Shown: piece after piece, positions 39,729 to 50,768 of the stretch
How positions within the stretch are numbered: position 1 is the first letter of the stretch
How the letters are laid out: every line of letters begins with the position of its first letter
Translations under genes and position numbers: made by a program
The notes under the pieces: model-generated
The model's database searches: none
What the model was told of the DNA's origin: nothing
Seen by the model: only the letters and a program-made list of their open reading frames with translations
Assembly (NCBI RefSeq): GCF_003334355.1
Contig: NZ_QOWP01000002.1
Source of the DNA: Escherichia coli
Lineage (GTDB): Bacteria; Pseudomonadota; Gammaproteobacteria; Enterobacterales; Enterobacteriaceae
DNA: 64,000 bases
Direction: 5' to 3' (one strand)

Positions 39729-39746
39729 TTCTTACGCCTGTAGGAT
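39729..39746. promoter_or_regulatory. EvgA box (TTCTTACG-CC-TGTAGGAT) in emrK-evgA divergent promoter region
   Basis: Fits recalled EvgA consensus TTCYTACA-N2-TGTARGAA. Confidence 0.6.
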
Positions 39747-39970
39747 TAGTAAGAAGACTTATAGTGCCAACTTGAAACTATAAATCATCGGTACAATCCC
39801 TGATTTTATTGTTGACATTTCATTTATGCCGACTATTTATATGGTATACTTGTCGAATTATCTTAAAGGAAGCTCAGATTTTCTTATTTTTATTGAGAAA
39901 ATGAGATGACGCCTTATGTCTGTATTACTACAGGGAGAAGGGAGATGCTTCATTGCAAAGGGAATAATCT

Positions 39971-40585
39971 ATGAACGCAATAATTATTGATGACCATCCT
40001 CTTGCTATCGCAGCAATTCGTAATTTATTGATCAAAAACGATATTGAAATCTTAGCAGAGTTGACTGAAGGCGGAAGTGCCGTTCAGCGGGTGGAAACAC
40101 TTAAGCCTGATATCGTCATCATTGATGTCGATATCCCCGGAGTTAACGGTATCCAGGTGTTAGAAACGCTGAGGAAGCGCCAATATAGCGGAATTATTAT
40201 TATCGTCTCCGCTAAAAATGACCATTTTTACGGGAAACATTGTGCTGATGCTGGCGCTAATGGTTTCGTGAGTAAAAAAGAAGGCATGAACAATATCATT
40301 GCGGCTATTGAAGCTGCAAAAAATGGCTACTGCTATTTCCCCTTCTCTCTCAACCGGTTTGTTGGAAGTTTAACGTCCGACCAGCAAAAACTCGACTCCT
40401 TATCGAAACAAGAAATTAGTGTCATGCGGTATATTCTTGATGGCAAGGATAATAATGACATTGCTGAAAAAATGTTCATCAGCAACAAAACTGTCAGCAC
40501 TTATAAAAGTCGCCTGATGGAAAAATTAGAATGTAAATCACTGATGGATCTTTACACATTCGCACAACGTAACAAAATCGGCTAA
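39971..40585 (+). CDS. evgA: response regulator EvgA (NarL/FixJ family)
   Basis: 204 aa, receiver domain and LuxR-type HTH. Confidence 0.95.
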   Translation: MNAIIIDDHPLAIAAIRNLLIKNDIEILAELTEGGSAVQRVETLKPDIVIIDVDIPGVNGIQVLETLRKRQYSGIIIIVSAKNDHFYGKHCADAGANGFVSKKEGMNNIIAAIEAAKNGYCYFPFSLNRFVGSLTSDQQKLDSLSKQEISVMRYILDGKDNNDIAEKMFISNKTVSTYKSRLMEKLECKSLMDLYTFAQRNKIG

Positions 40586-40589
40586 CCAC

Positions 40590-43500
40590 ATGAAGTTTTT
40601 ACCCTATATTTTTCTTCTCTGTTGTGGTCTTTGGTCGGCCATAAGTTTCGCAGACGAAGATTACATCGAATATCGTGGCATCAGTAGTAACAACCGTGTC
40701 ACACTTGATCCACTACGTCTGAGCAACAAGGAATTACGTTGGTTAGCGAGCAAAAAAAATCTTGTGATTGCAGTACATAAGTCCCAAACGGCTACGTTGT
40801 TGCATACCGATTCGCAGCAACGGGTTCGTGGTATTAATGCTGATTATTTAAATCTTTTAAAAAGAGCGTTAAATATCAAATTAACACTCCGGGAATACGC
40901 AGATCATCAAAAAGCAATGGACGCGCTTGCAGAAGGTGAAGTCGATATAGTGTTATCACATTTAGTTACTTCGCCGCCTCTTAATAATGACATTGCTGCA
41001 ACCAAACCATTGATAATTACCTTTCCGGCGCTGGTAACCACCCTTCACGACTCAATGCGACCGCTTACCTCACCAAAACCAGTAAATATTGCTCGGGTAG
41101 CAAATTACCCCCCAGACGAGGTAATTCATCAATCATTTCCAAAAGCAACAATTATCTCTTTTACAAATTTATATCAGGCATTAGCATCCGTCTCAGCTGG
41201 GCACAATGATTACTTTATTGGTAGTAACATCATTACCAGCAGTATGATTTCCCGCTATTTCACTCACTCCTTAAATGTAGTGAAATATTATAACTCGCCG
41301 CGTCAATATAATTTTTTCTTGACCAGAAAAGAATCTGTCATTCTTAATGAAGTACTCAATAGATTTGTTGATGCTTTAACAAATGAAGTTCGCTATGAAG
41401 TATCACAAAATTGGCTTGATACAGGAAACCTGGCCTTTCTGAACAAACCATTAGAACTCACTGAACATGAAAAACAGTGGATTAAGCAGCATCCCAATTT
41501 AAAGGTGCTGGAAAATCCTTACTCGCCCCCCTATTCTATGACGGATGAAAATGGCTCGGTTCGGGGCGTTATGGGAGACATTCTTAATATTATTACCTTG
41601 CAAACAGGTTTAAATTTTTCTCCGATCACCGTTTCACACAATATCCATGCTGGAACACAGCTTAGCCCCGGAGGATGGGATATAATACCTGGCGCTATTT
41701 ATAGTGAAGATCGAGAAAATAATGTTTTATTTGCTGAAGCCTTCATAACAACGCCTTACGTTTTTGTCATGCAAAAAGCGCCTGACAGTGAACAAACATT
41801 AAAAAAAGGAATGAAAGTTGCCATTCCATATTATTATGAGCTGCATTCGCAATTAAAAGAGATGTATCCGGAGGTTGAATGGATACAGGTCGATAATGCC
41901 AGCGCTGCATTTCACAAGGTTAAGGAAGGTGAACTTGATGCTCTGGTCGCGACACAGCTAAATTCGCGTTACATGATCGATCATTACTATCCTAATGAAC
42001 TTTATCATTTTCTTATTCCTGGCGTTCCGAATGCATCGCTTTCGTTCGCTTTTCCTCGCGGAGAACCGGAACTTAAGGATATTATTAATAAAGCACTGAA
42101 TGCAATTCCCCCAAGCGAAGTTCTGCGCCTGACGGAAAAATGGATTAAAATGCCCAATGTGACCATTGACACATGGGACCTATATAGCGAGCAATTTTAT
42201 ATTGTTACGACATTATCCGTTTTATTAGTTGGCAGTAGCCTTTTATGGGGATTCTACCTGTTACGCTCAGTTCGTCGTCGTAAAGTCATTCAGGGTGATT
42301 TAGAAAACCAAATATCATTCCGAAAAGCACTCTCGGATTCCTTACCGAATCCAACTTATGTTGTAAACTGGCAAGGTAATGTCATTAGTCATAATAGTGC
42401 TTTTGAACATTATTTCACTGCGGATTACTACAAAAATGCAATGTTACCATTAGAAAACAGTGACTCACCCTTTAAAGATGTTTTTTCTAATGCGCATGAA
42501 GTCACAGCAGAAACGAAAGAAAATCGAACAATATACACACAGGTATTTGAAATTGATAATGGCATCGAGAAAAGATGCATTAATCACTGGCATACATTAT
42601 GCAATCTTCCTGCAAGTGACAATGCAGTATATATTTGTGGTTGGCAAGATATTACTGAAACGCGTGATCTAATTAATGCACTCGAGGTAGAAAAAAATAA
42701 AGCGATAAAGGCTACCGTAGCAAAAAGTCAGTTTCTGGCAACGATGAGTCACGAAATAAGAACACCAATAAGCTCTATTATGGGCTTCCTGGAACTTCTG
42801 TCGGGTTCTGGTCTTAGCAAGGAGCAACGGGTGGAGGCGATTTCACTTGCCTACGCCACCGGACAATCACTCCTCGGCTTAATTGGTGAAATCCTTGATG
42901 TCGACAAAATTGAATCGGGTAACTATCAACTTCAACCACAATGGGTCGATATCCCTACTTTAGTCCAGAACACTTGTCACTCTTTCGGTGCGATTGCTGC
43001 AAGCAAATCGATCGCATTAAGTTGCAGCAGTACGTTTCCTGAACATTACCTGGTTAAGATCGACCCTCAGGCGTTTAAGCAGGTCTTATCAAATTTACTG
43101 AGTAATGCTCTCAAATTTACCACCGAGGGGGCAGTAAAAATTACGACCTCCCTGGGTCACATTGATGACAACCACGCTGTTATCAAAATGACGATTATGG
43201 ATTCTGGAAGTGGATTATCGCAGGAAGAACAACAACAACTGTTTAAACGCTACAGCCAAACAAGTGCAGGTCGTCAGCAAACAGGTTCTGGTTTAGGCTT
43301 AATGATCTGCAAAGAATTAATTAAAAATATGCAGGGCGATTTGTCATTAGAAAGTCATCCAGGCATAGGAACAACATTTACGATCACAATCCCGGTAGAA
43401 ATTAGCCAGCAAGTGGCGACTGTCGAGGCAAAAGCAGAACAACCCATCACACTACCTGAAAAGTTGAGCATATTAATCGCGGATGATCATCCGACCAACA

Positions 43501-49721: not shown

Positions 49722-49739
49722 TTCTTACAACTGTAAGAA
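49722..49739. promoter_or_regulatory. EvgA box, perfect palindrome TTCTTACA-AC-TGTAAGAA upstream of frc
   Basis: Read directly in yfdX-frc intergenic region. Confidence 0.6.
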
Positions 49740-49982
49740 GCGCCGGTGATTTACAAGCAAGGGTATGATTACGCTTTTTAAAGCGTACCATAAAACATAA
49801 CATAATAAATGATTTGTGATGACACGGGATTATTGCGGTTTACTTTGAGGAATATAAAATGCGAGTTTATAGCACCGCGAGCGCCAAATAATTTTATGAC
49901 CACAACCTGTCGTATTGTGGTCATAAAAAATTGTCGGCTGGAGGGAGTTAAATCCTTTACCTCAATATACTGCCTGTCAGCA

Positions 49983-50615
49983 TTAGTTCACAAACAGTGC
50001 TTCGCTATCGACGATGATTCCATCTTCCGCACCTTTAAGCGCCAGGTTTGCCTCGTAGTATTGCTTTTTATCAAGCAGTTTCTGCGCATCAGCAAGTGCA
50101 TTACGAGTCTGTTTAAGTGGCATCAGATATTGGTTTTCCATTACGCCAACACCGGCCAGGCGAAGCTCTTCCATTGCGCCCTTTTTATCCCCTTTCGCCA
50201 TTTTTTCATTGGCAATTTTTATCGCGGCTTCTTTTTCGGGAGTTGCTACATAACTCTCAGAAATTCCGACAGATGCATTAATGACAATATATTGGTCATC
50301 ATTGAGATTGGTCTTTTTACCTGGCTTAGCGAACTTTGCCCATTCGGTACTGTCATCTGACAGCAAAGCGGAAGCTTCATTGGTCAGTTCTTTTGCCTTT
50401 TCTGGATCGCCATGAAACAGAGCCAGGCGCGCTACCTGCACGTCACGCATCGCATATAAACCTTGTTCAGAGATACGCTCTGCTGCTGCCGTTTTCTGGG
50501 TTTGCTGAACTTGCTGAGTTTGCTGTTGTGCCGCTACCGGTGCATTATCAGCAGCCCATACAGTTGAAGATGCCAGAATTGCTGTGACCATCGTAGCCAT
50601 AATTAAACGTTTCAT
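49983..50615 (-). CDS. yfdX: periplasmic protein YfdX
   Basis: 210 aa with signal peptide. Confidence 0.85.
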
Positions 50616-50750
50616 ACTTACCTCATTCTTTAACAGTTTTAGAAAACGCCGCCATCATATTGGGTGAGCATGAAATGAGAAATCAGAGAGCAACGGTCAT
50701 TTTGAAAGGGTTATCTTACAGTTGTAGTTATTATCGCAAGAAGTATTTTA

Positions 50751-50768
50751 GTCTTACAATTGTAGGAA
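50751..50768. promoter_or_regulatory. EvgA box (GTCTTACA-AT-TGTAGGAA) upstream of yfdX; weaker copy at 50713-50730
   Basis: Matches EvgA consensus; located ~135 bp upstream of yfdX start. Confidence 0.55.

Follow-up and report, generated by a model that had tools for sequence, protein, structure and literature searches.

Does EvgA drive frc-oxc-yfdV-yfdE from a promoter of its own, or are these genes of Escherichia coli transcribed only from the promoter upstream of yfdX? Several papers name the locus the 'yfdXWUVE operon' (one of them PMC3720670). We analysed a 64,000-nt stretch of E. coli DNA (the window), which is near-identical to K-12 and carries emrKY, evgAS, yfdE-yfdV-oxc-frc and yfdX. 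The gene identities were confirmed by the RefSeq annotation of genomes identical, or nearly so, to the window. The emrK-evgA and frc-yfdX spacers are identical between the window and K-12 MG1655. The frc-yfdX spacer is AT-rich, with 35-38% GC versus 45-55% in the flanking genes. A 65-aa ORF in this spacer (49606-49803, minus strand) overlaps the EvgA box; we rejected it as spurious, as it is unannotated in the RefSeq records inspected and carries an internal 1-nt deletion in the divergent E. coli strain L002. The features discussed below are collected in Table 1.

Table 1. Genes, EvgA boxes and predicted transcription signals in the window.
Feature	Position	Strand	Basis or remark
EvgA box, divergent emrK/evgA spacer	39729..39746	.	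TTCTTACGCCTGTAGGAT, 2 mismatches; 0 mismatches in strain L002
evgA (regulator)	39971-40585	+	ORF and RefSeq annotation
evgS (sensor kinase)	40590-44183	+	ORF and RefSeq annotation
yfdE	44239-45423	-	ORF and RefSeq annotation
yfdV	45458-46402	-	ORF and RefSeq annotation
oxc	46472-48166	-	ORF and RefSeq annotation
frc	48220-49470	-	ORF and RefSeq annotation
frc-oxc-yfdV-yfdE unit, very probably served by the 49722 box	44239..49470	-	
Predicted -10 hexamer of the putative EvgA-dependent frc promoter	49668..49673	-	Best -10-like hexamer downstream of the box
frc-side flank, positions common to box-bearing promoters	49691..49713	-	Invariant columns
EvgA box of the frc (yfdW) promoter	49722..49739	-	TTCTTACAACTGTAAGAA, 0 mismatches, yfdX-frc spacer
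TTTATA-18-AATAAT, resembling a sigma-70 promoter; upstream of the frc EvgA box	49829..49858	-	Scan
Hairpin resembling a terminator, between the yfdX stop (55 nt upstream of it) and the frc box	49892..49928	-	Consensus scan
yfdX, probably with its own two-box promoter	49983..50615	-	ORF and RefSeq annotation
Proximal, weaker EvgA-like box upstream of yfdX	50713..50730	-	ATCTTACAGTTGTAGTTA, 3 mismatches; arms conserved, centre variable
Distal EvgA box upstream of yfdX	50751..50768	-	GTCTTACAATTGTAGGAA, 1 mismatch; arms invariant, centre variable (9 strains)

Scanning the window with the EvgA consensus TTCYTACA-N2-TGTARGAA (TTCYTACANNTGTARGAA), an 18-bp inverted repeat, we found that the operator pattern is matched with 0, 1, 2 and 3 mismatches at 49722, 50751, 39729 and 50713, respectively. 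The first three sites had been reported by an earlier sequence-only reading of this DNA, and they do sit where it placed them (49722-49739, 50751-50768 and 39729-39746). The 50713 box was missing from its list; the centres of this box and the 50751 site are 38 bp apart, with the 50713 box on the promoter-proximal side. What we computed here is that the sites are present, significant and conserved, together with the hairpin and the flank layout; for EvgA binding and EvgA-dependent induction we rely on the literature.

Degenerate 18-mers do arise randomly, and 0.62 matches with at most three mismatches are expected in the 64-kb window. This expectation, and no further support, speaks for the matches being a short AT-rich palindrome that turned up by chance and has no function. 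However, the four matches present were reached in 0 of 100 shuffles, and by chance a window of this size would hold about 1e-4 exact matches. All four fall within three promoter-bearing spacers that make up ~1.9% of the window, each adjoining EvgA-regulated genes; their position upstream comes from annotation, and the induction of these genes on EvgS/EvgA activation from the literature. The identical motif is also present upstream of K-12 safA, ydeP and yegR. Aligning nine diverse E. coli strains, we observed selective constraint on the half-site arms and none on the central dinucleotide. These statistics and the conservation effectively refute the chance reading, to which we give practically no credence. 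A literature search with the box sequence itself gave no match, and searches for EvgA ChIP or DAP data returned nothing relevant.

The box at 49722 is the best consensus match among all sites. It had been described as a perfect palindrome, which is correct for the 8-bp arms (TTCTTACA and TGTAAGAA are perfectly complementary) but not for the full 18 bp, as the central AC is not self-complementary and the box differs from its own reverse complement at 2 positions. The frc-strand reading, TTCTTACAGTTGTAAGAA, likewise has perfect 8-bp arms around a non-palindromic centre. A true palindrome, TTCTTACAGCTGTAAGAA, is carried at the frc box by strain L002. In the nine strains, the arms of the frc box are invariant and the central NN is variable. 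A 33-mer covering the box and its frc-side flank is found exactly in 5404 of 5426 E. coli genomes. Shifting a 34-mer 6-7 nt away from frc reduced the matches to only 4368 genomes (4250 records exact), and just 1522 records match the whole yfdX-frc spacer at 99% identity or higher, with divergence up to ~6-10%.

We compared the flanks of the box-bearing promoters. Counting from the box edge towards frc, the flank carries CA at +9/+10 (49713/49712), TC at +26/+27 (49696/49695) and T at +31 (49691). None of these five columns varies in the 36 sequences compared, which come from six promoters (frc, the proximal box of yfdX, safA, ydeP, yegR and emrK), the five comparison promoters belonging to genes reported as EvgA-induced or EvgA-bound. 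The opposite-side flanks of the same six promoters contain zero invariant columns. The six-promoter invariance was never equalled in 20,000 shuffles. Merging the paralogous pairs frc/yfdX and safA/ydeP into 4 independent promoter families gave P ~0.04, which leaves modest support for a common flank layout. In all six promoters, a -10 hexamer ends at +53 to +59 from the box edge. At frc it reads TATCAT, or TATTAT in some strains, with no other variation. This hexamer predicts a frc start near 49661 (about 2,493,445 in U00096.3) and a leader of ~190 nt, inferred rather than mapped; the frc box would be centred near -69.5, compared with -68.5 to -74.5 at safA, ydeP, yegR, emrK and yfdX. The putative downstream promoter has a very poor -35, and its predicted start lacks a purine. 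The predicted leader was also considered as an RNA element, a candidate that we dropped: it gave no credible Rfam hit and folded no better than shuffles (z = -0.9).

The region between yfdX and the box bears on whether one transcript covers the locus. There we found a stable, G+C-containing stem-loop of 15 pairs (dG -25.4 kcal/mol, z = -7.2). In strain 142 (L085), an A:U pair of its stem is replaced by G:C, a compensatory change. It probably ends or attenuates the yfdX transcript. The U-tract is imperfect, reading UUAUUUGG after the A/U-extended stem and AUAAAAUUAUUU after the core stem, and because of this, read-through from yfdX likely contributes to transcription downstream.

If yfdX-frc-oxc-yfdV-yfdE were a single operon served by the yfdX promoter only, the 49722 box would be auxiliary or vestigial, such as a looping partner of the yfdX boxes or the leftover of a promoter duplication. 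The operon naming agrees with this, as do the similar fold changes of yfdX and frc under acid stress; in acid-stress ribosome profiling, the log2 fold changes of yfdX, frc, oxc and yfdV are ~3.8-5.2 (PMC10746267). Moreover, the string CTCTCTGATT stands at identical spacing in the frc flank and in the flank of the proximal yfdX box, consistent with duplication. Against it, the 49722 box is the best consensus match and is essentially invariant in 5404 of 5426 genomes, and a covarying hairpin separates yfdX from the box. The spacer is also bound by RNA polymerase in vitro (PMC3946193). In evgS-constitutive mutants, frc shows the highest fold induction, oxc and emrKY are also induced, and frc and oxc are the strongest responders, with yfdX unmentioned in the main text (PMC4283999). 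Citing Masuda and Church 2003, Mullins et al. (2013; PMC3720670) attribute the induction of "yfdX and yfdWUVE", as separate units, to inverted repeats bound by EvgA; the frc box is the repeat described for yfdWUVE. We therefore hold the single-operon explanation to be very unlikely.

A second alternative places the start of transcription upstream of the box. In genomic SELEX, sigma-70 RNA polymerase on its own picks out the frc-yfdX spacer, and the TTTATA-18-AATAAT element is identical in sequence to a frc promoter that this work predicted and labelled 'constitutive', in a table row that also has an 'HNS' entry (PMC3946193). This is the sole published promoter sequence read for the spacer, and its position upstream of the box, not downstream, counts against a start at 49661. 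EvgA at the frc box might act on transcripts that begin at this element or read through from yfdX, possibly by displacing H-NS (counter-silencing). The low GC content of the spacer would fit such a mechanism, as would the very weak -35 of the predicted downstream promoter. On the other hand, the frc-side flank and the -10 position are common to five other box-bearing promoters; fixed-spacing elements and a -10 position common to six promoters point to a conventional upstream-activator geometry. The top conservation island is also made of the box, its downstream flank and the -10 region, not of the upstream element, which varies between strains (TATAAA/GATAAA). We consider it improbable that EvgA acts at frc by way of upstream transcripts.

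We thus favour, with high confidence, the explanation that the 49722 box is the EvgA~P operator of a one-directional frc promoter module and that yfdX is transcribed separately. The sequence-only reading had suggested that frc-oxc-yfdVE has an EvgA-dependent promoter besides that of yfdX, and the conservation, the covarying upstream hairpin and the one-sided common flank layout argue in its favour as far as sequence can. Under mild acid, activated EvgS would lead to a dimer of phosphorylated EvgA occupying 49722-49739, which we take as a known high-affinity operator. EvgA itself is a NarL/FixJ-type response regulator, encoded ~9 kb from the 49722 box in the same window. The module directed at frc would comprise, in order, the box, CA, TC, a weak -35 region and the -10 TATCAT, with the box centre near -70. 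EvgA~P at the box would recruit or stabilise sigma-70 RNA polymerase, and the resulting transcription would run through frc-oxc-yfdV-yfdE, while yfdX would be transcribed from its own promoter with the boxes at 50751-68 and 50713-30. In this scheme we infer the -10 hexamer, the start, the terminating role of the hairpin and the mechanism of activation. A box-arm mutant, TTCTTACA to TTGTTAGA, is proposed for testing.

The flank of the proximal yfdX box has the CA/TC spacing of the frc flank. According to PMC5706723, EvgA~P activates the yfdX promoter directly; the same paper gives the induction of a PyfdX reporter. The emrK/evgA box shows the common flank layout on the emrK side only. Two papers (PMC8174306 and PMC9496106) cite Kato et al. 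2000 for EvgA binding at the emrKY promoter, and the site at 39729-46 would serve emrKY and possibly evgAS autoregulation.

Tentatively, and with rather more doubt than hope, we raise the idea that EvgA-dependent promoters in general are one-directional modules of fixed spacing and not merely symmetric 18-bp boxes. Such a module may consist of a promoter-proximal arm (almost invariably TGTAAGAA), CA at +9/+10, TC(Y) at +26 to +28, T at +31 and a -10 ending at +53 to +59. The fixed layout may decide which way each box works, facing frc rather than yfdX and emrK rather than evgA. If real and undescribed, it would be of use in predicting how EvgA targets are oriented and where their transcription starts.

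The BvgA promoters of Bordetella (fha, ptx) have an inverted heptad repeat far upstream, with lower-affinity dimers phased at ~22 bp down to the -35. In both systems, an inverted repeat of T/C-rich half-sites lies ~70-90 bp upstream of the start, and the conserved positions of the EvgA promoters recur at ~20-22 bp between the box and the -35. The TC at +26/+27 resembles the TTCYTA half-site. By analogy, the flank elements may mark contacts for extra EvgA protomers, as with BvgA, or for RNA polymerase. Unlike the BvgA dimer sites, the downstream elements of EvgA promoters are just 2-3 conserved bases, not recognisable half-sites. EvgA/EvgS were named for their similarity to BvgA/BvgS (PMC9496106). 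The frc promoter also resembles activator-dependent sigma-70 promoters with a site near -70 in the position of its box, its weak -35 and its recognisable -10; it differs in that the frc start is predicted rather than mapped.

The EvgA regulon boxes (ydeP, safA-ydeO, yegR, yfdX, frc/yfdW and emrKY/evgAS) were reportedly described by Masuda and Church in 2003, Itou et al. in 2009 and Kato et al. in 2000, and ours are the same in organism, locus and sequence, with no substantive difference. Nothing is added here to the 2003-2009 publications on the boxes at emrK/evgA, yfdX and frc/yfdW and on the separate induction of yfdX and yfdWUVE. The idea that frc-oxc-yfdVE has a promoter to itself goes back to work published in 2003, and the frc-box finding is already known, because Mullins et al. 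(PMC3720670) report the induction of both yfdX and yfdWUVE. Mildly new are the one-directional, fixed-spacing layout of the six box-bearing promoters and the covariation in the terminator-like hairpin of yfdX. Working from raw sequence alone, the sequence-only reading correctly recovered how the EvgAS acid-response island of E. coli is controlled in cis.

Looking beyond E. coli, we found that the frc-oxc locus of the outgroup Moellerella, in the fetched region, is without an EvgA box, yfdX or evgS; a neighbouring 1109-aa ORF was rejected as EvgS. In a contig search with Frc as query, E. albertii and E. fergusonii were absent among the matches listed, which comprised one divergent E. coli, Moellerella and otherwise distant Frc homologues, for example from Burkholderiales and Streptomyces.

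Searching the whole 64 kb with the consensus TTCYTACANNTGTARGAA and allowing up to 3 mismatches, we found four EvgA-box matches against 0.62 expected, and none of 100 shuffles gave four. A chance origin of these matches is excluded. All four fall within three spacers, together about 1.9% of the window, that adjoin genes reported to be EvgA-regulated. The sequence-only reading had placed and spelled three of these boxes correctly; it lacked the proximal box upstream of yfdX, which lies 38 bp (centre to centre) from the distal one on the promoter-proximal side and has conserved arms around a centre that varies between strains. 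The consensus was validated independently in K-12 by the boxes upstream of safA (1 mismatch), ydeP (2) and yegR (1). Of 5426 complete E. coli genomes, 5420 match the 49.4-51.0 kb region, many at 100% identity, and the gene order was taken from the RefSeq annotation of matching genomes and K-12 MG1655. The window has exactly the MG1655 sequence in two spacers, emrK-evgA and frc-yfdX, and a few SNPs separate the two between yfdX and ypdI.

Coordinates of the EvgA boxes, flanks, genes and other elements (window positions unless another locus is named)
Feature	Coordinates	Strand	Sequence or remark
EvgA box, emrK/evgA spacer	39729-46		TTCTTACGCCTGTAGGAT; 2 mismatches
EvgA box, yfdX-frc spacer	49722-39		TTCTTACAACTGTAAGAA; 0 mismatches
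Distal EvgA box upstream of yfdX	50751-68		GTCTTACAATTGTAGGAA; 1 mismatch
Proximal EvgA-like box upstream of yfdX	50713-30		ATCTTACAGTTGTAGTTA; 3 mismatches
frc and emrK/evgA boxes, SCPM-O-B-8794 (L002)	9732-9749 and 19729-19746
Layout flanks, window	49691-49713 (frc), 50682-50704, 39698-39720
Layout flanks outside the window (loci with the safA, ydeP and yegR promoters)	L089 4041-4063 and 6700-6722; L090 4383-4405
emrY, then emrK	emrK 38392-39555	-
evgL	39945-39974	+	9-codon leader ORF
evgA	39971-40585	+
evgS	40590-44183	+
yfdE	44239-45423	-
yfdV	45458-46402	-
oxc	46472-48166	-
frc	48220-49470	-
65-aa ORF	49606-49803	-	across the frc EvgA box
-10-like hexamer, frc	49673-49668		TATCAT
Predicted 'constitutive' frc promoter	49858..49829	-	TTTATA-18-AATAAT
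Hairpin	49928-49892	-	15 pairs
yfdX	49983-50615	-
ypdI	50911-51186	+
Moellerella wisconsensis frc-oxc cluster	L003 10001-15637

The frc box at 49722 had been called a perfect palindrome. This description failed: AC, the central dinucleotide, is not self-complementary, so that the reverse complement differs at two positions, and the symmetry is perfect in the 8-bp arms only. In the divergent E. coli SCPM-O-B-8794, the frc box centre is GC, giving a true 18-bp palindrome, and the emrK/evgA spacer carries a 0-mismatch box, TTCCTACAGGTGTAAGAA, where the window and K-12 have two mismatches.

Aligning the window with MG1655 and seven diverse E. coli, we found identity in the frc-yfdX spacer down to about 94%, and less, by an unquantified margin, in SCPM-O-B-8794. 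In this alignment, the arms of all four boxes showed little or no change, and it was the central dinucleotides that varied (AA/AG at frc; AA/AG and GT/AC at the yfdX boxes; GCC/GCA/ACC at emrK). At the sequence level, constant arms around a variable centre are the pattern expected of a dimeric helix-turn-helix operator. A 33-mer comprising the frc box and the next 14 nt on the frc side (49708-49740) was essentially exact in 5404 of 5426 genomes. When a 34-mer lying 6-7 nt closer to yfdX was used, only 4368 genomes had it, and the whole 512-bp spacer reached at least 99% identity in only 1522 records, with 90-95% in 1057. These counts mark the frc box and its frc-proximal flank as an island of constraint. 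Such conservation fits poorly with a single yfdXWUVE operon carrying a merely vestigial frc box, a reading we consider very improbable.

For six sites (frc, proximal yfdX, safA, ydeP, yegR and emrK), we aligned the flank on the gene side, ungapped, on the box edge. Counting from that edge toward the gene, CA at +9/+10, TC at +26/+27 and T at +31 were common to all six, whereas the six opposite-side flanks had no common position in the same alignment. The five columns stayed invariant when strains were added (two or three to nine per promoter; 36 sequences), and adjoining columns varied. None of 20,000 shuffles equalled the six-promoter pattern; after collapse to four families, with frc/yfdX and safA/ydeP taken as paralogous-looking pairs, P was ~0.04. 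All six promoters have a -10-like hexamer whose end lies at +53 to +59, so that the box is centred at about -68.5 to -74.5. The promoter-proximal box arm is nearly always TGTAAGAA, and the distal arm is more degenerate. By analogy with BvgA promoters, the shared layout could reflect extra EvgA protomers or RNA polymerase contacts. This one-directional, fixed-spacing layout downstream of EvgA boxes is the only possibly new item of the analysis. The string CTCTCTGATT occurs downstream of the proximal yfdX box and, at the same spacing, in the frc flank, which suggests that the two promoters arose by duplication.

From the position of the frc -10-like hexamer (TATTAT in some strains), we predict that transcription starts near 49661, with a ~190-nt leader. 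The predicted promoter has a poor -35, as expected of an activator-dependent promoter. The distance from box to ATG is 251 nt at frc and is likewise long (243 nt) at ydeP. The spacer matched no Rfam family, and the folding of the putative leader was not unusual in structure.

Shortly after the yfdX stop codon and upstream of the frc box lies a very stable hairpin (dG -25.4 kcal/mol, z = -7.2 vs shuffles), in whose stem a compensatory double change replaces A:U by G:C in strain 142 (L085). It could act as a terminator that leaks, or as a stabilising 3' stem-loop; its U-tract is imperfect, and some read-through from yfdX is therefore likely. The hairpin, too, is a poor fit with a single operon.

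EvgA at the frc box might instead act on transcripts started upstream, by yfdX read-through or from a SELEX-predicted promoter, for example by countering H-NS in the spacer, which is AT-rich (35-38% GC). Shimada et al. 2014 (PMC3946193) report a sigma-70 holoenzyme genomic SELEX signal in the frc-yfdX spacer and a predicted 'constitutive' frc promoter, in a table row with an 'HNS' entry. Our promoter scan located this element upstream of the frc box, so its transcript would run through the box. We regard such upstream-start action, the main rival reading, as improbable; it and downstream activation are not mutually exclusive.

In Moellerella wisconsensis, Frc is 87% identical and frc-oxc is followed by 323-aa and 418-aa ORFs; the fetched locus lacks evgS, yfdX and any EvgA box. 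From this comparison, the EvgA wiring seems to be specific to Escherichia, added on top of a gene cluster that is older. The comparative genome scan gave no other Escherichia species among the matches listed.

The sequence-only reading had proposed that frc-oxc-yfdVE has its own EvgA-dependent promoter besides that upstream of yfdX. The hairpin, the shared layout, the box-less outgroup and the literature support this proposal, which has been in the literature since 2003. A figure of Mullins et al. 2013 (PMC3720670) shows exactly this arrangement, with EvgA-bound repeats inducing yfdX and yfdWUVE, and the published record again fits poorly with a single operon. According to Johnson et al. 2014 (PMC4283999), frc is the most induced gene in evgS-constitutive mutants, and the EvgA sites they found were confined to genes for which EvgA regulation had been shown before. 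Roggiani et al. 2017 (PMC5706723) use a PyfdX reporter described as 'directly activated by phosphorylated EvgA', and the acid-stress dataset of Schumacher et al. 2023 (PMC10746267) gives log2 fold changes of ~3.8-5.2 for yfdX, frc, yfdV and oxc. For binding of EvgA at the emrKY promoter, PMC8174306 and PMC9496106 cite Kato et al. 2000. We hold the joint claim of an EvgA operator and an own frc promoter with high confidence, and the exact start with less. In the most likely mechanism, an EvgA~P dimer would bind the 49722 box, centred near -70, and activate a weak sigma-70 promoter facing frc-oxc-yfdV-yfdE, and yfdX would form a separate unit with two boxes, partly insulated by the hairpin.

The 65-aa ORF is unannotated in the inspected RefSeq records, a 1-nt deletion in SCPM-O-B-8794 falls inside it, and it is probably not a gene. 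On its evgA side, the emrK/evgA box is followed at once by a half-site-like AGTAAGAA (39747-39757), 10 bp from the TGTAGGAT arm; since most other strains carry AGTGAGAA, this half-site probably has no significance. The leader ORF evgL, annotated as b4781 in MG1655, is present in the window; its terminal ATGA overlaps the start codon of evgA, suggesting translational coupling. CsrA binding to the evgA leader is reported in PMC11052181. In the O157:H7 strain ECP19-798 (L086 5273-6414), yfdE is annotated as frameshifted (pseudogene); the rest of the unit, frc-oxc-yfdV, is intact, as is its EvgA box.
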